A stretch of 64,000 nt of DNA from Sphingobacteriales bacterium (lineage in GTDB: Bacteria; Bacteroidota; Bacteroidia; Sphingobacteriales; Sphingobacteriaceae), in NCBI GenBank assembly GCA_038209155.1, contig JBBQYA010000002.1, forward strand, positions 3,862-67,861, given 5' to 3'. Below the pieces are notes generated by a model, which saw nothing but the letters and a program-made list of their open reading frames with translations, ran no database searches and was not told where the DNA came from. Positions 8,827-33,050 of this stretch are shown here, one piece after another. Both the position numbers and the translations under genes were made by a program. The stretch's first letter is position 1. The number at the start of each line of letters is the position of its first letter.

Positions 8827-10742
8827 GCGGGAATTGTTCTCAATTTGCTGTTTTTATAACCATAAGCAAAATAAATAATTAAGCCGACAAAAAGCCAAAT
8901 TCCGAATCCAATCCAATTAGTAATTCCCATTTCCGACATCATGTAAAGGCAACAAACAAGCCCCGCAACTGGTATGAATGACAGATTTAATTGGAAACAT
9001 AAAATTGAAATATAAAGGCAAACCAATATGAAAATCCACGTTGGTATTTTATGTTTAAACAATCCAAATCCAGATTCAAATTTTTTGTCTTCTGAAATAG
9101 ATAATTTATTTAAGGTATTGGAATACATGTTTTTGTCCATCGCTAATAAAGCAATTTCTGGATCTGCTAATTCTTTATCTTCAGTTTTCAAGTCCGATTT
9201 AATAACCGTTTTTAATTCAGCTAATTCATTTTCATTCAAAGAGGTGATTAATTGAGTTGGCTTAAAAGCTTGTTTTTCATTTAAAACAAAAGCTTTTGTT
9301 TCATTTGGTCTTTGAATAAAAAGAAAAATAAGTGTTCCTAAAAATAGGATTGGAACAATAAATTTTGAATTGAGGTAAGGAGTTTTAAATTTTCGATCAA
9401 TAGTTTCTTTGCTGTTTTGCAATTTTAATACTCCAGCGCAAACCAATACAAAAGCAAATAAAGTTCCGATGCTACAAAGGTCAGTTACCATCGTTAAATT
9501 CATAAATAAGGAAGGAACAGCAACTACGAAACCAGTTACAATGGTAGCAAAAGATGGAGTTCTGTATTTCGGGTGAATTCTTGAAAAAGCCTTTGGAAGC
9601 AATCCATCTCGGCTCATGCTCATCCAAATTCGTGGTTGTCCTAATTGAAAAACCAATAAAACACTCGCCATTGCAATCACTGCACTTACTGCAATTATGC
9701 CAGATAGCCAATTAAGATTCAATTCTTGAAACACAAAAGCCAACGGATCTCCGACAGCCAATTGATCATATTTTACCATTCCAGTAAGAACTAAAGCCAC
9801 CGCAACATAAAGAACAGTACAAATAATAATTGCCCACATCATGGCTTTGGGTAAATCTCTTTGCGGGTTTTTGCATTCCTCGGCTGTGGTAGATATGGCA
9901 TCAAAACCGATGTATGCAAAAAATACTGCCGAAACACCTTTTACCACTCCAGAAAACCCGTTTGGAGCAAACGGAGTCCAGTTTTTAGTATCCACATAAA
10001 AAACACCAACTGCAATAATTAGTAAAATTATCGCCAATTTTATCACCACCATCACATTACTGGCATTTCTTGATTCTTGCATTCCACGGTAAACCAGCCA
10101 AGTAATCAATACGATAATGAGTAAAGCTGGAAGGTCGGCAACAAAATGAAAACCACCAATTAAAGGTGCTGATTGCCATGCTGTGTATGTTGCTTGTTGA
10201 TTATAACTTAAGTTTTCAAACAGTTTTCCGCTTTGCATCAATAAGGTTGATTCTTTAAATCCGCGAGATGCACTTAAATAATCCATCGTCATCCAGGCAG
10301 GCAATTCTATTCCGCCAGAAGCAAGCAAACTTGTGAAATAATCCGACCATGAAATAGCCACAGTGATATTACCAACCCCATATTCCATGATTAAAGACCA
10401 ACCAATAATCCATGCAATAAGTTCACCAAATGCGACATAGGAATAGGTGTAAGCACTACCAGCAACTGGAACAATGGAAGCAAATTCTGCATAGGCAAAG
10501 GCTGCAAAACCACAAGCTATAGCTGTGAAAATGAATAAATAAATAACGGCTGGACCACCGTCTGAACTTGCTTTTCCTATAGTGCTAAAAATTCCTGCAC
10601 CGATAATTGCAGCAATTCCAAATGCTGCTAAATCTCTCACTCCTAATGTTTTCGCTAATGCACCACCATGATGGTTTTGTCGTGCATCCGCATCTCTTAA
10701 TATTCCTTTAATCGTCTTTTTCCTAAAGAGTTTTTCAAACAT
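8823..10742 (-). CDS. APC-superfamily amino acid permease (cationic amino acid transporter-like, 14 TM)
   Basis: N-terminus ...LAKTLGVRDLAAFGIAAIIGAGIFSTIG and GSAYTYSYVAFGELIAWIIGW are typical APC signatures. An insert of about 100 hydrophilic residues precedes the last two TM helices. Confidence 0.85.
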   Translation of the reverse strand: MFEKLFRKKTIKGILRDADARQNHHGGALAKTLGVRDLAAFGIAAIIGAGIFSTIGKASSDGGPAVIYLFIFTAIACGFAAFAYAEFASIVPVAGSAYTYSYVAFGELIAWIIGWSLIMEYGVGNITVAISWSDYFTSLLASGGIELPAWMTMDYLSASRGFKESTLLMQSGKLFENLSYNQQATYTAWQSAPLIGGFHFVADLPALLIIVLITWLVYRGMQESRNASNVMVVIKLAIILLIIAVGVFYVDTKNWTPFAPNGFSGVVKGVSAVFFAYIGFDAISTTAEECKNPQRDLPKAMMWAIIICTVLYVAVALVLTGMVKYDQLAVGDPLAFVFQELNLNWLSGIIAVSAVIAMASVLLVFQLGQPRIWMSMSRDGLLPKAFSRIHPKYRTPSFATIVTGFVVAVPSLFMNLTMVTDLCSIGTLFAFVLVCAGVLKLQNSKETIDRKFKTPYLNSKFIVPILFLGTLIFLFIQRPNETKAFVLNEKQAFKPTQLITSLNENELAELKTVIKSDLKTEDKELADPEIALLAMDKNMYSNTLNKLSISEDKKFESGFGLFKHKIPTWIFILVCLYISILCFQLNLSFIPVAGLVCCLYMMSEMGITNWIGFGIWLFVGLIIYFAYGYKNSKLRTIPA

Positions 10743-13296: not shown

Positions 13297-13361
13297 AATT
13301 ATAAGATTTAAAAATAAAATTTAAGAATTTTTGAAAATAATGTTAAAATTATCATTAGTAT

Positions 13362-13490
13362 GGTCGGCTTAGGGATTGAAGCGGTATCCTTTTTTTGCTT
13401 ATTCAAACTATCAAATGAGAATAATCTCACCGCAAAAAAAGATAAAGCTGAAAGCCCGACCCCGAAATTTTTTTATTTCGGGGAAAGCCA
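13362..13490. other. GC-rich long imperfect hairpin plus a 9-bp stem-loop; candidate small structured RNA, strand unresolved
   Basis: GGTCGGCTT...AGC..TATC.CTTTTTTTGC (13362-13398) pairs with GCAAAAAAAGATA.AGCT..AAGCCCGACC (13432-13461). CCCCGAAAT-TTTTTT-ATTTCGGGG follows at 13460-13483. An alternative pairing GCGGT (13381-85) with ACCGC (13429-33) is possible. Confidence 0.3.
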
Positions 13491-26865: not shown

Positions 26866-27150
26866 TCATGATACTCTAGACTATTTGCTGAAAAAAAATT
26901 TTAAATTACAAGAAACAATTAGACTAATTTTTCGCAATATCTAAACCTTATATCTCTAATAATAAATAAGTTTTTTTTATAATAATTTGTATTTATTATT
27001 ACGAAGTTAATAATTGGAATTTTAAATTAACATGCTGTCAAAAGTGTTACAGCGAAGATTTAATTCAGAAGTTGTATAAAATTTCTACACAATTATTTTA
27101 ATAATTTGAACTAATTTATATTCTAAAAAAAATAATTCCAAACCGAATAG

Positions 27151-27176
27151 GGGTAACAAATACTTTACTTGTCATA
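27151..27176 (+). promoter_or_regulatory. Candidate ECF-type promoter, GGGTA-N13-TTGTCATA (copy 1)
   Basis: GGGTA at 27151-55 and TTGTCATA at 27169-76. The same 13 fixed bases at the same spacing recur at 28484-28509. Confidence 0.45.
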
Positions 27177-27212
27177 CATAAAAGAAGGATAAAATTTGTG
27201 TGCGGTAAAGCA

Positions 27213-27220
27213 TAGATTTG
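27213..27220 (+). promoter_or_regulatory. Candidate -7 box (TAnnTTTG)
   Basis: TAGATTTG lies 17 nt upstream of the TTG start at 27238. Confidence 0.3.
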
Positions 27221-27237
27221 CATAAAAAATAAATCTC

Positions 27238-28428
27238 TTGCTAACTCAGGAAATAAAAGATATTCATACGAATTTTAGTTTCAGTGAGCAACTGTACAAA
27301 AGAAGTTTTAAGGATTATTATTCACCACTCTGTCAGTTTGCTTTTAACATTTTGAGCGATCAAGATGAAGCTGAAGAAATAGTTCAAAATGTTTTTTATA
27401 AATGGTGGGAAAAGCGTGAAAGTTTGGAGATTACCCAATCCATAAAGTCTTATTTGTATAAATCTGTACACAACGCAAGTCTAAATAGATTGAAACATGA
27501 AAATATAAAGGATAATTATAAACAGTATAATGCCACGCAAATAGATAACAATCCAATGTATGCAACAGAGAATCTTCACTTGAAAGAAATGGAAATGGAA
27601 TTATACAAAGCGATAGAATCATTGCCAGAACAGTGCAGAAGAGTATTTAAATTGAGTCGTTTTGAAGAATTGAAATATGCAGAAATTGCGAATCAATTAG
27701 AGATTTCGATAAAAAGAGTTGAAAACCCTCAAATAGCGGGGTCTGTAAATGTTGCTTATGGTAAAACATCAGGTTTGCAAATAGCTTCTTTAGTGAATAT
27801 AAATGCAAATGAAATCTCTGGAGCTCAAATTTCTGGCTTAGTAAACATTGCAAATAAAGTAAATAAAGGTTTTCAATTAGGTTTGGTTAATTATGCAGAT
27901 TCATCAAACTCGATTCCGATCGGTCTTTTTAGTTTTGTAAGAAAAGGTGGGTATAGGCGCCTTGAAATTGGAATAAATGAACAAGCTTTCATCAACGCTT
28001 CTCTAAAAACTGGTGTGCGTAGATTTTACACAATCTTCCAATCTGGAATTTGGTCTCAACAAACTTCTAAACCTATTTGGTCTTATGGTTTAGGAATCGG
28101 TAAAAGTGTGTTTTTTAAAAATAATTGGAATTTTGATTTTCAAGGAACTCATGCATTTGTAAATAATGGTAACTCATTAAATACAGACAATCAATTAATA
28201 AAAATTCATTTTATAGTTGAAAAGAAGTTATCTAAAAGCACGTCATTAGCTGTTGGTCCAGTTGTTAATGGTTTTTTTGAAAAAAAATTCCAAAATAATG
28301 GAAAACTAATCTCTGATTTTGTTCCTTATGATCTTAAAACTTATGATTTAATTAATAACACCGTAAAGACTTGGATTGGTTTTACAGCATCAATTCGCTT
28401 TTTTGATGTTAATGGTTTTGGTAAATAA
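27238..28428 (+). CDS. Chimeric ORF: ECF sigma-70 (regions 2 to 4, truncated in 4.2) fused in frame to a G-x-Q-[IL]-x-G-L-V-N repeat plus beta-rich domain
   Basis: Region 2 is DEAEEIVQNVFYKWWEKRE. Region 4 is LPEQCRRVFKLSRFEELKYAEIANQLEISIKRVEN. From nt 27727 come four repeats of about 16 aa (PQIAGSVNVAYGKTS, GLQIASLVNINANEIS, GAQISGLVNIANKVNK, GFQLGLVNYADSSNS). A beta-rich tail of about 170 aa follows, with no TM segment or signal peptide. The only usable start is TTG at 27238. Confidence 0.7.
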   Translation: MLTQEIKDIHTNFSFSEQLYKRSFKDYYSPLCQFAFNILSDQDEAEEIVQNVFYKWWEKRESLEITQSIKSYLYKSVHNASLNRLKHENIKDNYKQYNATQIDNNPMYATENLHLKEMEMELYKAIESLPEQCRRVFKLSRFEELKYAEIANQLEISIKRVENPQIAGSVNVAYGKTSGLQIASLVNINANEISGAQISGLVNIANKVNKGFQLGLVNYADSSNSIPIGLFSFVRKGGYRRLEIGINEQAFINASLKTGVRRFYTIFQSGIWSQQTSKPIWSYGLGIGKSVFFKNNWNFDFQGTHAFVNNGNSLNTDNQLIKIHFIVEKKLSKSTSLAVGPVVNGFFEKKFQNNGKLISDFVPYDLKTYDLINNTVKTWIGFTASIRFFDVNGFGK

Positions 28429-28483
28429 TTTTCTTCAACAACTAATTAAAATCCAATTAATAAAAAAAGTAAAATGGCAATAA

Positions 28484-28509
28484 GGGTACTCTCTTTTACA
28501 ATTGTCATA
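28484..28509 (+). promoter_or_regulatory. Candidate ECF-type promoter, GGGTA-N13-TTGTCATA (copy 2)
   Basis: GGGTA at 28484-88 and TTGTCATA at 28502-09, 20 nt upstream of the receptor ATG at 28530. No TAnnTTTG box lies in this spacer. Confidence 0.45.
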
Positions 28510-28529: not shown

Positions 28530-30935
28530 ATGAATCGTAAAATTGCAGTTCTCATCCTAATTCTTCTTTTAGGTTTTTCAGAACAAAACAAAATCTTTGC
28601 TCAACAAAAGTTCACGGTAAGTGGCTATGTTAAAAGTAGTGCAGATGGAGAAACCATTCTTGGCGCTACAATATATACAAGAGAATTGGCCTCTATGGGT
28701 ACTTCTACCAATAATTCAGGATTCTATTCTCTTACTTTACCAAGTGGAAAATATAAATTAGTAATAAGTAGTTTAGGATTTACAACTCAACTATTAGATT
28801 TAGATTTAATACAAAACAGAGTACAAAATATTGAATTGGATGATTCGGAAACTCAATTAGGAGAGGTAATTATTACGGAAGATATAATAGATGCAAATGT
28901 ATCTTCCAATAGAATGAGCATAGAAAAATTGAGCATTCAAACTATTAAAAGTATGCCCGCTTTATTGGGTGAAGTTGATGTAATTAGAAGCATTCAACTT
29001 TTGCCTGGAGTAAGTACGGTGGGAGAGGGTGCTTCTGGTTTTAATGTACGTGGAGGAGGTGTAGATCAGAATTTAATTCTTCAAGATGAATCCATCATTT
29101 ACAATAGCTCGCATTTATTTGGATTTTTTTCTGTCTTTAATCCTGACGCTGTTAAAGATGTAACGCTGATGAAAGGTGGAATTCCAGCACAATATGGTGG
29201 CAGATTATCTTCTCTATTGGATGTTAAATTGAAAGAAGGGAACTCAAAAGAATTTGCTGGATCTGCAGGTATCGGAACGGTTAGTAGCAGATTATCGTTA
29301 GAAGCACCTATTATAAAAGATAAAAGTTCATTTATTATAGCAGCTAGAAGATCCTATGCAGATGTTTTTTTAAAACTATTACCAGATTTCAAGGATAACC
29401 AACTATATTTTTATGACTTAAGTGCGAAGTGGAATTATAATATAGATGCAAAAAATACTGTGTTTGTTTCAGGATATTTTGGAAAAGATGTTTTTCAATT
29501 CAATGATGATTTTAAATTGAATTGGGGTAATGCTACTGGAACTGTAAGGTGGAATCATGTTTTCAACCAAAAATTATTTGCCAAATTTACAGGAGTATTC
29601 TCTAATTATAATTATTTATTAGGTGTGCCATCAGGAACAGATGCTTTTGAATGGATTTCAAGCATTCAAAATCAGAATGCTAAGGCAGATTTGCAATATT
29701 TTATAAACCCAAAAAACACGTTAAATTTTGGTGGATCGGTTATTAATTATAGTTTTCAACCAGGTAAAATTTCTCCCTTAGGTAATAATAACATATTTAA
29801 CGAATATGAACTTGCTACCCAAAGGGGTTTAGAATATGCTGTTTATATTGATAATGATAGAGAATTTGGATCAAGATGGTCTGTGCAATATGGCCTTCGT
29901 CTGTCAATGTTTGATTATCGAGGTCCGTACACAACAAAAGAATATGAAGGTAAAGATGGATTAAGAAAAGATTTAGTAAAAACAAAAAAATACGGGAGTG
30001 AATCTATTGTCAAATATTGGAATCCAGAACCAAGGTTTAGTACACGTTATGTATTAAATGAGAATAGTTCGATAAAAGCTAGTTACCAAAGAATGGCTCA
30101 ATATATTCATTTAATTTCGAGTACTTCTGCTGCATCTCCACTTGATATTTGGCAACCAAGCACCACCAATATAAAACCAGAAACTGCTGATCAAGTTGCA
30201 ATTGGATATTTTAGAAATATTAAAAATAATATGTTTGAAACTTCAGTTGAGGTATATTATAAAAATTCAACCAATCAGATTGATTATATAAATGGTGCAG
30301 AAACTTTGTTGAATGAAGATTTGGAAAGTGAATTATTGTATGGAAAAGGTAGAGCTTATGGAGCTGAATTCTACATTAAAAAGAAGTCTGGTAAGCTTAA
30401 TGGTTGGGTTAGTTATACCTTGGCTAAATCTGAAAGACAAATTATTGGCTTAAATAATAATGATTGGTATAATGCTAAGTATGATCGAACTCACAACATA
30501 TCAATTGTTGGTATTTATGATTTAACCAAAAAATGGTCTTTCTCAACTTCATTTGCTTATTTAACAGGGGTTGCAACTACTTTTCCTAATTCCAGATATA
30601 CCGTTCAAGGAATCGTGATACCCGATATATCAGACGATTCTAGAAATAATTATCGAGTACCAGCTTATCATAGACTAGATTTTTCTGCCACTTTAACTCC
30701 CGAAGGAAAGCCAAATAAAAAGTATACAAGCAACTGGGTATTTTCAGTATATAATGCCTACAACCGTAGAAATGCCTTTTCTGTTTATTTTGGTCAAAAT
30801 AACGACTCCCAAAATCTTACCTATACTCAAGATCCAAATGGAACTGTAATACCAACTTCTGCTAAAACACAAGCTACTCGATTAGCTATTTTTGGATCAA
30901 TCATTCCTTCTGTTACTTATAATATTAACTTTTAA
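28530..30935 (+). CDS. TonB-dependent receptor (CarboxypepD_reg, plug, barrel; no STN signalling domain)
   Basis: Signal peptide, then FTVSGYVKSSADGETILGATIY...GFYSLTLPSGKYKLVISSLGF (CarboxypepD_reg). The plug is ...VDVIRSIQLLPGVS...GFNVRGG. The barrel ends ...VTYNINF. Confidence 0.9.
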   Translation: MNRKIAVLILILLLGFSEQNKIFAQQKFTVSGYVKSSADGETILGATIYTRELASMGTSTNNSGFYSLTLPSGKYKLVISSLGFTTQLLDLDLIQNRVQNIELDDSETQLGEVIITEDIIDANVSSNRMSIEKLSIQTIKSMPALLGEVDVIRSIQLLPGVSTVGEGASGFNVRGGGVDQNLILQDESIIYNSSHLFGFFSVFNPDAVKDVTLMKGGIPAQYGGRLSSLLDVKLKEGNSKEFAGSAGIGTVSSRLSLEAPIIKDKSSFIIAARRSYADVFLKLLPDFKDNQLYFYDLSAKWNYNIDAKNTVFVSGYFGKDVFQFNDDFKLNWGNATGTVRWNHVFNQKLFAKFTGVFSNYNYLLGVPSGTDAFEWISSIQNQNAKADLQYFINPKNTLNFGGSVINYSFQPGKISPLGNNNIFNEYELATQRGLEYAVYIDNDREFGSRWSVQYGLRLSMFDYRGPYTTKEYEGKDGLRKDLVKTKKYGSESIVKYWNPEPRFSTRYVLNENSSIKASYQRMAQYIHLISSTSAASPLDIWQPSTTNIKPETADQVAIGYFRNIKNNMFETSVEVYYKNSTNQIDYINGAETLLNEDLESELLYGKGRAYGAEFYIKKKSGKLNGWVSYTLAKSERQIIGLNNNDWYNAKYDRTHNISIVGIYDLTKKWSFSTSFAYLTGVATTFPNSRYTVQGIVIPDISDDSRNNYRVPAYHRLDFSATLTPEGKPNKKYTSNWVFSVYNAYNRRNAFSVYFGQNNDSQNLTYTQDPNGTVIPTSAKTQATRLAIFGSIIPSVTYNINF

Positions 30936-30943
30936 AAAATAAG

Positions 30944-31771
30944 ATGAAAAATTTATTTAGTAAAACACTAACAACTATACTTATTATTATTTTCTTTACC
31001 TCTTGCGAAGATGTAATTGATGTAAAATTGGATAAAGGAATTACAAAGATTAGTGTAGATGCAGAAATTACCAATTTACCTGGGCCTTATTATGTGAAAT
31101 TAACAACTACTGCCCCATATTTTGAGAATAAGGCAAATCCTCCACTTACAGGTGCATCGGTATTTATTTCTGACAATAAAGGAAATGTTGATACATTGAT
31201 TGAAACTAATAATGGAATTTACGTTACTCAATTTATTCAGGGTGAAATAGGCGTAAGTTACACATTGACCATTAAATCTGGAGGTCAAGAATATTTTGCA
31301 GAGACTAAAATAAATAGGGTTCCAAAAATTGATTCTTTATATACTGAATTTTTAGAAAATGAGATAGGATTTGATGATGGCATTTATGTTTTCACCAATA
31401 TCCAAGAACCAGAAGGTTTAGGAGATCATTTTAGATTTAGAGCTTATAGAAATGATACTCTTTTTAATAAAACATCTGACCTGTTTTATACTTCTGACAG
31501 ATTTGTTGATGGAAATTATATAGTAGATCAAGAAATAACATTCAATCCTTTTTTAAAAGGAGACAAAGCAACATTACAAATCCTATCAATTACAGAAGAT
31601 GCATACTTTTTTTATAATGAAGTAGTTAGACAAACTTCTGGTGGAGGTTTATTTTCAGATCCACCGGCAAATGTGAGAACCAATGTTTTTAATAAAAATC
31701 CTTCTGGAACCAAGGCTACAGGATATTTTTTCGGATCTGCTGTTTCTCAAAAAACAATAATTGTCCAATAA
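30944..31771 (+). CDS. DUF4249-family lipoprotein, the usual partner of this receptor class
   Basis: Lipobox FFTSCEDVIDVKLD, then ...AEITNLPGPYYVKLTTT...TGASVFISDNKGN...GIY...GVSYTLTI..GGQEY.A.T...VPKIDSL, which matches my memory of DUF4249. It starts 8 nt after the receptor. Confidence 0.75.
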   Translation: MKNLFSKTLTTILIIIFFTSCEDVIDVKLDKGITKISVDAEITNLPGPYYVKLTTTAPYFENKANPPLTGASVFISDNKGNVDTLIETNNGIYVTQFIQGEIGVSYTLTIKSGGQEYFAETKINRVPKIDSLYTEFLENEIGFDDGIYVFTNIQEPEGLGDHFRFRAYRNDTLFNKTSDLFYTSDRFVDGNYIVDQEITFNPFLKGDKATLQILSITEDAYFFYNEVVRQTSGGGLFSDPPANVRTNVFNKNPSGTKATGYFFGSAVSQKTIIVQ

Positions 31772-31830: not shown

Positions 31831-33009
31831 TTAATTTTTTCTTTTCATTAAATTAAAAATATATCCAAGAAAACTATTGTTAGATTCTGCTTTATCTTCT
31901 TCATTCTCAATAATCTCATCACCTTTTTTCGCTGTAGATTTTGAATCTCCGTTATCTCCAATTAAATAACCATAAGGTTTTAAATCATCTACTTCATCAA
32001 AAATAATTTTCAGTATTCCTAAAAGAGGAATAAATAAAATCATGCCGGCAACTCCCCATAATTTACCGCCGACTAATAAAGCTATAATGGTTGCAAATGA
32101 GTTTATTTTTACTTTAGAGCCAGTAATATTTGGCGTTAAGAAATTGTTTTCTAAAAACTGTGTTAAATAGCAAACCCCGAAAGTTGCTACAGCATACCAA
32201 CTATTATCTTTCATCAATAATGCCATGGCAATTGGAAATAAACTGCCAATAAGTACGCCTATATATGGTATTATGTTTAAAAAACCAGCCAAACAACCAA
32301 AAAATATCGCATGCGGAACACCAATTATTAAAAATCCAATACTATTTAATGTGGATAAAATAGCCATTACAATCAAAACCCCTGAAAGATAGGATTGAGT
32401 CACTGAGCTTGTTTTTTCTAAAATGTCGTTTGTTCGTTCGTGATTTGCAACATCAGCAATCATTAAAATAAATTTTCTAATTCGCGTTCTAAAAAAAAGA
32501 AAGAAAAAAATATAAATAATTAGAATTGCAATGGTAGCTAAAGTACCAGTAGTGGTCACTAATACTCCTTTGGCAACTACGTCCAAATTATCTGTCAATC
32601 CACTTATTTGTTCATTAAAATAAGTATTTTGTTCTTTTGCAGACATATTGGTTTGTTTCTGAATAAAAGAAGTTAATAAATCAAATTTCTCGATTGCTTT
32701 TTGTTTCAAAATGGGCAAATCTTCTGCAAAACCCATAATTTGACTAGAAAACAAAAAGATAAATCCAGCAATTACAGTTATAATAATTAAGAGACAAATA
32801 ACAATTGCTAAAGCTCTCGGAAATTTATGCTTTTCTAAAAACCTACATACTGGCAACATGAGCATTGCTAAAAGTGCAGCGAAACTTAATGGAACTATAA
32901 GACTTCCCGCATAGTATAAGCCACATACTAGTAATGTAAAGAAAAGTAAAAGCAAGGTTAATTTGAAAAGAGGTTGCTCCGTAGTAGATTTAGGTATTTC
33001 TGTATTCAT
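31831..33009 (-). CDS. AI-2E family (PerM/UPF0118) transporter
   Basis: About 8 TM segments and a conserved C-terminal core ...IPYIG..IG...P......WGVAGMILFIPLLGILK. I use the ATG at 33009 because the longer track start at 33033 is a TTG. Confidence 0.75.
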   Translation of the reverse strand: MNTEIPKSTTEQPLFKLTLLLLFFTLLVCGLYYAGSLIVPLSFAALLAMLMLPVCRFLEKHKFPRALAIVICLLIIITVIAGFIFLFSSQIMGFAEDLPILKQKAIEKFDLLTSFIQKQTNMSAKEQNTYFNEQISGLTDNLDVVAKGVLVTTTGTLATIAILIIYIFFFLFFRTRIRKFILMIADVANHERTNDILEKTSSVTQSYLSGVLIVMAILSTLNSIGFLIIGVPHAIFFGCLAGFLNIIPYIGVLIGSLFPIAMALLMKDNSWYAVATFGVCYLTQFLENNFLTPNITGSKVKINSFATIIALLVGGKLWGVAGMILFIPLLGILKIIFDEVDDLKPYGYLIGDNGDSKSTAKKGDEIIENEEDKAESNNSFLGYIFNLMKRKN

Positions 33010-33050
33010 TTTTTTAGAATTACAATTAAACAACCAAAAAAAATCAAATG

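Follow-up and report, generated by a model that had tools for sequence, protein, structure and literature searches.

Extracytoplasmic function (ECF) sigma factors with C-terminal extensions are known, the extension being SnoaL-like in ECF41, ECF56 and ECF294, a TPR domain in ECF42 and Cys-rich in ECF238 (Casas-Pastor et al. 2021, PMC7826278). A different architecture is that of Dma3 (BT_2778) of Bacteroides, predicted to be a fusion of sigma factor, anti-sigma domain, transmembrane (TM) helix, linker and 8-strand barrel, in other words a dual membrane-spanning anti-sigma factor with an N-terminal sigma factor (PMC10927553). The FecI-like clade also comprises sigma/anti-sigma/SusC-like trios of Bacteroidota, now classified as ECF240 (formerly ECF10) (PMC7826278, PMC9249621). 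The present analysis deals with an open reading frame (ORF) of a Sphingobacteriales bacterium (assembly GCA_038209155.1) found in a 64,000-nucleotide stretch of contig JBBQYA010000002.1 (positions 3,862 to 67,861, forward strand), hereafter called the window, in which the first part of an ECF sigma factor is fused in frame to 16-residue repeats and a beta-rich domain. An earlier note, made from the sequence alone, had left the choice between a deletion product and a new class of ECF sigma factor with a cis-acting extension. The ORF is very probably the scar of one in-frame deletion of ~2.4 kb within a three-gene operon for cell-surface signalling, because its two halves are collinear with separate genes of a sister operon and the sequence that lies between them there is absent from the window.

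The ORF extends over positions 27238-28428 of the plus strand and encodes 396 residues from a TTG start. Its halves match separate sister genes with E values of 1e-67 and 1e-86, so that the feature is not due to chance. The sister loci are L005 (NCBI contig JANOCT010000008.1), which carries the closest full-length relative of the sigma half (P0042, 201 aa), and L089 (ENA OFCX01000057). Both have five separate intact genes, which encode a sigma factor of 201 aa, FecR (333 aa), an outer-membrane protein of 635 aa, a receptor-like protein of 801 aa and a DUF4249 protein. A gapless alignment (56-60% identity) pairs residues ~165-396 of the window ORF with the C-terminus of the 635-aa protein of L005 (residues 404-635). 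What the window lacks is the stretch 6517-8901 of L005, 2,385 nt or exactly 795 codons, and the lost parts can be listed in the terms of that locus: the last 29 codons of the sigma gene, the whole of FecR with its only TM helix, and the third gene up to codon ~403, with the signal peptide, an STN-like domain, CarbopepD_reg and ~8 repeats encoded there. The absence of a separate anti-sigma gene, already noticed in the earlier note, was confirmed by a tblastn search with the sister FecR, which gave no match in the 64-kb window, and neither STN remnants, FecR remnants nor a second compensating module were found there. The deletion proposed in that note thus stood as regards the loss of the sigma C-terminus, of the anti-sigma function and of the start of a gene further downstream, but the partner is the third gene of the operon and not the next one, and the loss comprises the whole of FecR plus ~403 codons.

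By its profile matches, the segment of residues 1-163 is a FecI-like Bacteroidota ECF sigma factor, with 149.5 bits for TIGR02985 (Sig70_bacteroi1) against a cut-off of 126.4. The regions 2 and 4 announced in the earlier note were both recovered. The match to Sigma70_r2 (residues 24-87, E 1.9e-10) indicates that the sigma2 domain, responsible for core binding and -10 recognition, is present, while that to Sigma70_r4_2 (residues 120-163, E 5e-12) covers positions 2-45 of the 54 of the profile only. Coverage of TIGR02985 likewise stops early (profile positions 3-149 of 162). Alignment with P0042 is gapless over window residues 15-163 (P0042 24-172, 65% identity) and ends exactly at VEN, residue 172 of 201, where the break of the recognition helix after RVEN had been placed. 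The solved ECF sigma4 domains (SigH 5zx2, SigW 5wuq, RpoE 1or7) reach residues 185-188 of P0042. Measured against them the sigma half has lost 13-16 structured residues (~16) of the last sigma4 helix, in agreement with the '15-20 residues' first estimated, and 29 residues to the end of the protein. Only the first turn of this helix (K-R-V-E-N) is retained, followed by Pro; a complete sigma4.2 helix-turn-helix with a -35 recognition helix was found neither by profile coverage, nor in the alignment with P0042, nor by comparison with the solved structures. Upstream of the break, 55 of the 61 family-invariant positions are kept (median among relatives, 61), and the deleted tail holds 10 of the family's 71 most conserved positions. 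Beside the junction, T160R affects a position that is 100% invariant in 120 relatives. The ATG start of the sister sigma genes has also disappeared from the window (27205-27240) through a TG->GC change and a 2-nt indel, with an in-frame TAA at 27223, and the sole start left is the TTG at 27238. The sigma half has more than 1,000 relatives, which stand alone and are 170-225 aa long.

The second half begins with four repeat units in strict 16-residue register (PQIAGSVNVAYGKTSG / LQIASLVNINANEISG / AQISGLVNIANKVNKG / FQLGLVNYADSSNSIP), in line with the four repeats of ~16 aa noticed originally. With the LA_2272 repeat model (NF047436), the window copy scores 20.1 bits, under the threshold of 25, and the family member P0017 is matched strongly (78.5 bits, 7 stretches). 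A Pfam scan of the ~170 residues after the repeats gave no match, including none to OMP_b-brl_2. The beta-rich character ascribed to this tail is borne out by an AlphaFold2 model of the C-terminal 233 residues (alignment of 38 sequences), which is all-beta with pLDDT 90.3 and pTM 0.84. The best PDB matches retrieved by Foldseek are small outer-membrane barrels (NspA, the barrel domains of OprF and OmpA, OmpW, OmpX and designed TM barrels); the top ones are 8-stranded (NspA with E 3.5e-4, OprF and OmpA), but with modest query TM-scores of 0.36-0.39. The C-terminal part thus models as an OmpA/NspA-like outer-membrane barrel.

Homologues of this half (27-39% identity, collinear over ~96% of the 233 residues) are standalone and exported: a signal peptide precedes 8-12 repeats of this type, the beta domain follows, and Phe is mostly the last residue. 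The sigma domain is absent from all of them except the window's own protein. The question raised in the earlier note, whether the homologue is normally a separate protein with a signal peptide or TM segment, is thereby answered in the affirmative as to the signal peptide. Like the LA_2272 proteins (NF047436) and the ~380-aa repeat and barrel proteins of Bacteroidota, the window copy combines G-x-Q-x-[AS]-G-x-x-N repeats of 16 residues with a C-terminal beta domain; unlike these exported proteins, which possess a signal peptide and 8-12 repeats, it has four repeats, no signal peptide and an attached sigma factor. As stated from the start, the chimera has neither signal peptide nor TM segment: its maximal Kyte-Doolittle score over 19 residues is 0.81, and no such segment attains 1.6 or more. 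Corresponding maxima in the deleted part are 2.01 for the TM helix of FecR and 1.63, at residue 1, for the signal peptide of the 635-aa protein.

A repeat and barrel protein is also found in another setting. In Paracrocinitomix mangrovi (CP091819.1, L001:1407-6158), a standalone 385-aa member ends a different cluster made of an ECF sigma factor of 178 aa, two small ORFs without a Pfam match (135 and 72 aa), a CarboxypepD_reg protein of 779 aa and the repeat protein itself, and an STN/CarbopepD_reg protein is encoded just upstream of this cluster. Gene neighbourhoods of this kind are such that the repeat and barrel family seems recurrently tied to ECF sigma loci.

The scar itself can be followed codon by codon. 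The window reads GTT GAA AAC / CCT CAA ATA GCG GGG, the sister sigma gene at the breakpoint GTA GAA AAC CAC ATG GGA AAA, and the sister third gene AGT ACT CAA CTA GCT GGA. The peptide of the chimera that spans the junction is ...SIKRVENPQIAGSVNVAYGK. Past VEN, the sigma family consensus continues with QMGKAL..., and a repeat begins with x-Q-[IL]-A-G. The resemblance of VENQI and xQIAG, on which the idea of a microhomology-mediated deletion had been based, is real at the protein level, but microhomology was not demonstrated: the breakpoint nucleotides common to the sister sequences number at most 1-3. Since a Pro codon separates N from Q, the common Q-I/L stretch, 3' of this codon, was not the crossover. 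The sisters have diverged from the window by 35-44% at the protein level, too far for the ancestral junction to be reconstructed from them, and a microhomology-mediated origin is possible but unproven.

Polarity was examined in loci retrieved with the chimera as query that contain a related sigma gene and at least 3.2 kb downstream of it (n = 32). The sigma factor is always full-length, FecR comes next in 32/32 and a gene for an STN/repeat/barrel protein comes after it in 31/32. Since the trio is intact in 31 of 32 loci, it is ancestral and the fusion is derived; the reverse polarity, in which the fusion would be ancestral and the sisters would have gained genes, was rejected on the same count, the loci being diverse. 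The fusion is also unique. In an exhaustive phmmer search of 1.84 billion representatives, residues 1-396 were matched by the window's own protein alone (883 bits). The runner-up, of the 635-aa sister type, scored 305 bits, and the other top matches concern a single half with at most 177 bits, when a second fusion would be expected to yield ~260 bits or more. None of the metagenome matches spans both halves. The only carriers of the fusion are P0001 and P0041, 2 aa apart. The latter, a second 396-aa member of the same 90% cluster, originates from the Logan assembly of SRR19962013 (locus L004) and has the identical junction. As to the conservation of the fusion in sister genomes, for which a check had been suggested, L005 and L089 have separate intact genes and only the near-identical L004 carries it.

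This second copy bears on whether the junction could be an artefact of assembly or binning, such as a chimeric join, the collapse of a segment or a deletion variant present in a minority. The two sources are assemblies of metagenome type, and the internal repeats of the third gene can confuse assemblers, but the same in-frame junction was produced by two pipelines whose consensus sequences differ at 20 sites in 7,360 nt, 4 of them within the ORF (2 synonymous and 2 non-synonymous). In addition, the sigma gene and the repeat region have no common sequence able to cause a collapse, the synteny of the flanks is unbroken and the reading frame is kept exactly across the join. An artefact is very unlikely, given that the same join in two differing assemblies, between parts that are dissimilar, argues strongly against misassembly. 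Elsewhere in the aligned region, 6 of the 20 differences between the window and L004 are clustered within 21 nt (32464-32484) of a gene for an AI-2E transporter (31831-33033, minus strand), 2 of them being non-synonymous and 4 synonymous; this cluster may stem from recombination over a short tract or from a local difference in assembly.

Could the ORF represent a new class of ECF sigma factor with a cis-acting C-terminal domain, or a Dma3-like fusion of sigma factor and barrel that spans the envelope? The existence of ECF groups with C-terminal extensions and without anti-sigma genes (PMC7826278), and that of the predicted sigma/anti-sigma/TM/linker/barrel fusion Dma3/BT_2778 in Bacteroidota (PMC10927553), give this idea a basis, as do the predicted OmpA/NspA-like barrel at the end of the ORF and the lack of an anti-sigma gene nearby. 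As in the ECF groups with extensions (PMC7826278), a sigma factor is followed by an extra C-terminal domain in the same polypeptide and no anti-sigma gene adjoins it. However, these groups have a complete sigma2-sigma4 core, a group-wide extension and no anti-sigma factor, whereas here the core is truncated, the extension is confined to one lineage and all relatives have FecR. The likeness to Dma3 lies in the phylum, Bacteroidota, and in the association of an ECF sigma factor with an OmpA-like small barrel in one frame. Dma proteins, however, link their ends by an anti-sigma domain, a TM helix in the inner membrane and a periplasmic linker that is long and disordered, and without any of these the barrel of the window ORF would be unable to reach the outer membrane. 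The constituents differ as well, ECF21 sigma factors and OMP_b-brl_2 barrels in Dma proteins as against a FecI-like sigma factor and a barrel without a match to OMP_b-brl_2 here. To this are added the incomplete sigma4 core, the absence of any anti-sigma domain, TM helix or linker between sigma factor and barrel, and the restriction of the fusion to one pair of 99.7%-identical sequences among the 1.84 billion representatives; all relatives of the sigma factor are FecR-regulated, and both halves are collinear fragments of separate sister genes. The new class envisaged in the earlier note is thus largely refuted, with a very low residual probability: one near-clonal lineage has the fusion, relatives keep FecR, the helix is cut, and the supposed extension would be a fragment of an exported barrel protein devoid of its signal peptide. 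As true sigma-barrel fusions such as Dma3 occur in the same phylum, the risk of claiming a new architecture falsely is real, and recognising the chimera for what it appears to be prevents such a claim. Annotation pipelines will label it 'RNA polymerase sigma factor', wrongly.

Most likely, the ORF is a dead remnant of a signalling module and not a new kind of sigma factor. By the deletion, codon 163 of the sigma gene was brought next to codon ~403/404 of the third gene. The sigma factor was deprived of its C-terminal tail and, in the sigma4.2 helix by which the -35 element is read, of ~16 structured residues, the outer-membrane protein was deprived of its signal peptide and its STN domain, and the anti-sigma factor was eliminated entirely, including its only TM helix. 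In sigma70-family proteins, the last sigma4 helix reads the -35 promoter element, and in such outer-membrane proteins the STN domain is the usual contact with FecR. With its recognition helix cut, the sigma factor should no longer be able to recognise its promoter, and the barrel fragment, which has no export signal, should be unable to reach the outer membrane. What remains would be a sigma factor that should still fold sigma2 and part of sigma4, yet would not recognise a promoter, welded to a barrel fragment that could be neither exported nor inserted in the outer membrane. The module would thereby be inactivated, and the ORF would be a pseudogene-like remnant of recent date, in which no stop codon has arisen so far. 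Judging from the missing helix, signal peptide, STN domain and FecR, loss of function of the chimera is highly probable, and the best reading is that of a recent, lineage-specific, loss-of-function deletion. T160R and the lost ATG start are small signs of decay, and a G->A change in the motif that precedes the 801-aa gene (see below) may be another.

Several facts weigh against a dead remnant. In a genome with 31% GC, the frame has stayed open over 1,188 nt, the presumed promoter motif upstream is intact, and there is no excess of non-synonymous change. Non-synonymous divergence (dN) between the window and L005, expressed relative to that of the 801-aa gene, is 2.2 for the sigma half and 2.9 for the barrel half, compared with 4.0 and 4.4, respectively, for the intact pair L005-L089. 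Ratios as low as these speak against long neutral evolution, which leaves a recent deletion or a constraint on the ORF as explanations, and the dN pattern is predicted equally by continued selection and by a recent deletion. Concerning the open frame, 193 of the 3,564 possible point mutations in the ORF create a stop, and a neutral ORF would stay open with P = 0.84 at 0.27% divergence (that between the strains), 0.53 at 1% and 0.04 at 5%. The open frame is thus entirely in keeping with a dead remnant of recent origin. Synonymous divergence (dS) between the window and its sisters is saturated (proportion of synonymous differences, pS, 0.63-0.81), which, with only 4 differences in the ORF between strains, leaves a dN/dS test for a pseudogene without power either way.

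The same facts would also agree with a chimera that kept a partial or new activity, either as a sigma factor free of anti-sigma control that would rely mainly on the -10 element or would read another -35 element via its new residues, or as a core-binding decoy that would damp other ECF sigma factors, the barrel fragment being an inert or destabilising tail. Retention of sigma2 and of most of sigma4, with a score above the TIGR02985 cut-off, of 55/61 invariant positions and of the upstream motif, and a frame open in two strains with dN not in excess, would fit such an activity. Nevertheless, only the first turn of the recognition helix is left, with Pro behind it, 10 highly conserved positions are deleted, and an unexported barrel fragment of ~230 residues would be expected to misfold in the cytoplasm; moreover, the fusion is conserved nowhere else, and intactness of the ORF is uninformative at the strain divergence observed. 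Residual activity is consequently improbable. Slightly less probable still is the specific case in which the chimera is expressed as an anti-sigma-free, constitutively available sigma-like protein with relaxed or altered -35 recognition, or competes for core with other ECF sigma factors. If this were true, the deletion would have rewired regulation in this lineage rather than destroyed it. On its own, the chimera is of little consequence, being another ordinary case of a deletion, confined to one lineage, that most likely puts an accessory signalling module out of action.

The intact module from which the chimera derives may merit more attention. To judge from its domains and gene order, the ancestral module works like the FecI/FecR/FecA-type of cell-surface signalling (FecI-like clade, ECF239-243). 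It has a FecI-like sigma factor (TIGR02985), FecR (FecR and FecR_C with one TM helix) and an STN-bearing outer-membrane protein, and it resembles the sigma/anti-sigma/SusC-like trios of Bacteroidota in its gene order. In the window, the module differs from this type by being broken, with no recognition helix, no FecR and a partner without signal peptide and STN domain. The intact relatives differ from it too, since their STN-bearing partner has 16-aa repeats and a small barrel and is without Plug or 22-strand barrel. Among 10 third genes examined, the STN domain was detected in 9 (4 above the Pfam threshold) and CarbopepD_reg_2 in 10, and no Plug or TonB-receptor domain in any; the STN-bearing partner of FecR is therefore not a TonB-dependent transducer. 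The three-gene module is present at L005:6001-9603 and in L086, L087 and L089-L168 (for example L092:4953-8336 and L108:2375-5720), where it consists of the FecI-like ECF sigma factor, FecR and an outer-membrane protein of 580-690 aa with signal peptide, STN, CarbopepD_reg, ~12 LA_2272-like repeats and an OmpA/NspA-like small barrel. A literature search found no description of a sigma/FecR/STN-repeat-barrel module. The trio may represent a type of cell-surface signalling not described so far, with the STN domain borne by a small repeat-bearing barrel instead of a TonB-dependent transducer. Reconstructed here together with its motif, this widespread and apparently undescribed module may be worth studying more than the chimera.

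The motif, of consensus TAGGGGTA-N14-TTGTCATAACC, lies 60-90 nt 5' of the sigma gene in 56/67 related loci. In these 67 upstream regions, TAGGGGT is found in 56, for ~1 expected, and TTGTCAT in 47. The exact motif occurs once in the window, where it is intact (Table 1), and it has the same position and nearly the same sequence in L005 (5942-5966) and L089. Throughout 34 trio loci, all the instances (36/36) are on the strand of the operon, 25 immediately before the sigma gene, 7 immediately behind the third gene and 0 within the trio. From this distribution, the motif is probably the autoregulated cognate promoter of the ECF sigma factor as well as a target promoter.

Table 1. Features of the ORF and its surroundings, with positions in the window
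Feature	Position	Strand	Basis and remarks
ECF-type bipartite promoter-like motif TAGGGGTAAC-N-TTGTCATA	27148-27176	+	TAGGGGT 27148-27154, 14-nt spacer, TTGTCATA 27169-27176; ~60-90 nt 5' of the start codon
ECF sigma factor: sigma2, linker, sigma4.1 and start of sigma4.2	27238-27726	+	Codons 1-163, ending ...ISIKRVEN; Pfam and NCBIfam matches
Junction codon CCT (Pro164)	27727-27729	+	Codon comparison with the sister sigma gene and the sister 635-aa gene; scar between 27726 and ~27730
Last four of ~12 LA_2272-like 16-residue repeats of the ancestral outer-membrane protein	27727-27918	+	Residues 164-227; x-Q-[IL]-[AS]-[GS]-L-V-N...; register, and collinearity with residues 404-467 of the L005 635-aa protein
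Small beta-barrel domain (predicted), C-terminal, of the ancestral outer-membrane protein	27919-28428	+	Residues 228-396 plus stop; gapless match (56-60% identity) to the C-terminus of the 635-aa protein of L005
Degenerate second copy of the motif, TAAGGGT-N14-TTGTCATA	28481-28509	+	Before the 801-aa gene; same in L004; the homologous site of the sisters is TAGGGGT
Context: 801-aa CarboxypepD_reg/Plug receptor-like gene (28530-30935) and DUF4249 gene (30944-31771)	28530-31771	+	Both intact; Pfam matches

Downstream of the chimera, the 801-aa gene is 85% identical to its sister orthologue, with a dN/dS of ~0.055. In L005, the exact motif (9694-9718) stands 28 nt 5' of this gene, and L089 likewise has a copy before it. 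The window copy at this place carries the G->A change mentioned above, within the most conserved block of the motif, and TAAGGGT may reflect either the early decay of an orphaned promoter or natural variation. As suggested by the motif, which alone designates them as members of the regulon, the 801-aa and DUF4249 genes were probably targets of the lost sigma factor, and deletion in the sigma operon would probably have disconnected the pair from it. More distant orthologues of the 801-aa gene present another picture: in 80 loci, at 44-53% identity, the sigma module is upstream in none, and the motif precedes the gene in 0/79. This gene context showed the 801/DUF4249 pair to be independent of the sigma module, and for lack of the module beside them these orthologues provide no calibration of evolutionary rates. 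In one locus (L156:1638-4000), an 801-like gene (43% identity) is situated upstream of a trio and is itself preceded by a TAGGGGT...TGTC motif. The positions of the motif suggest that receptor-like genes are recurrent targets of this type of sigma factor. By the best matches, together with a Flavo-1 RNA, the source was placed near Cytophagales-like Bacteroidota. This RNA (RF01705), which agrees with an origin from Bacteroidota, is encoded at some distance from the ORF, at 13358-13465 of the plus strand; matched over its full length with 52.8 bits (gathering threshold 42), it is the only Rfam match in the window at gathering thresholds.

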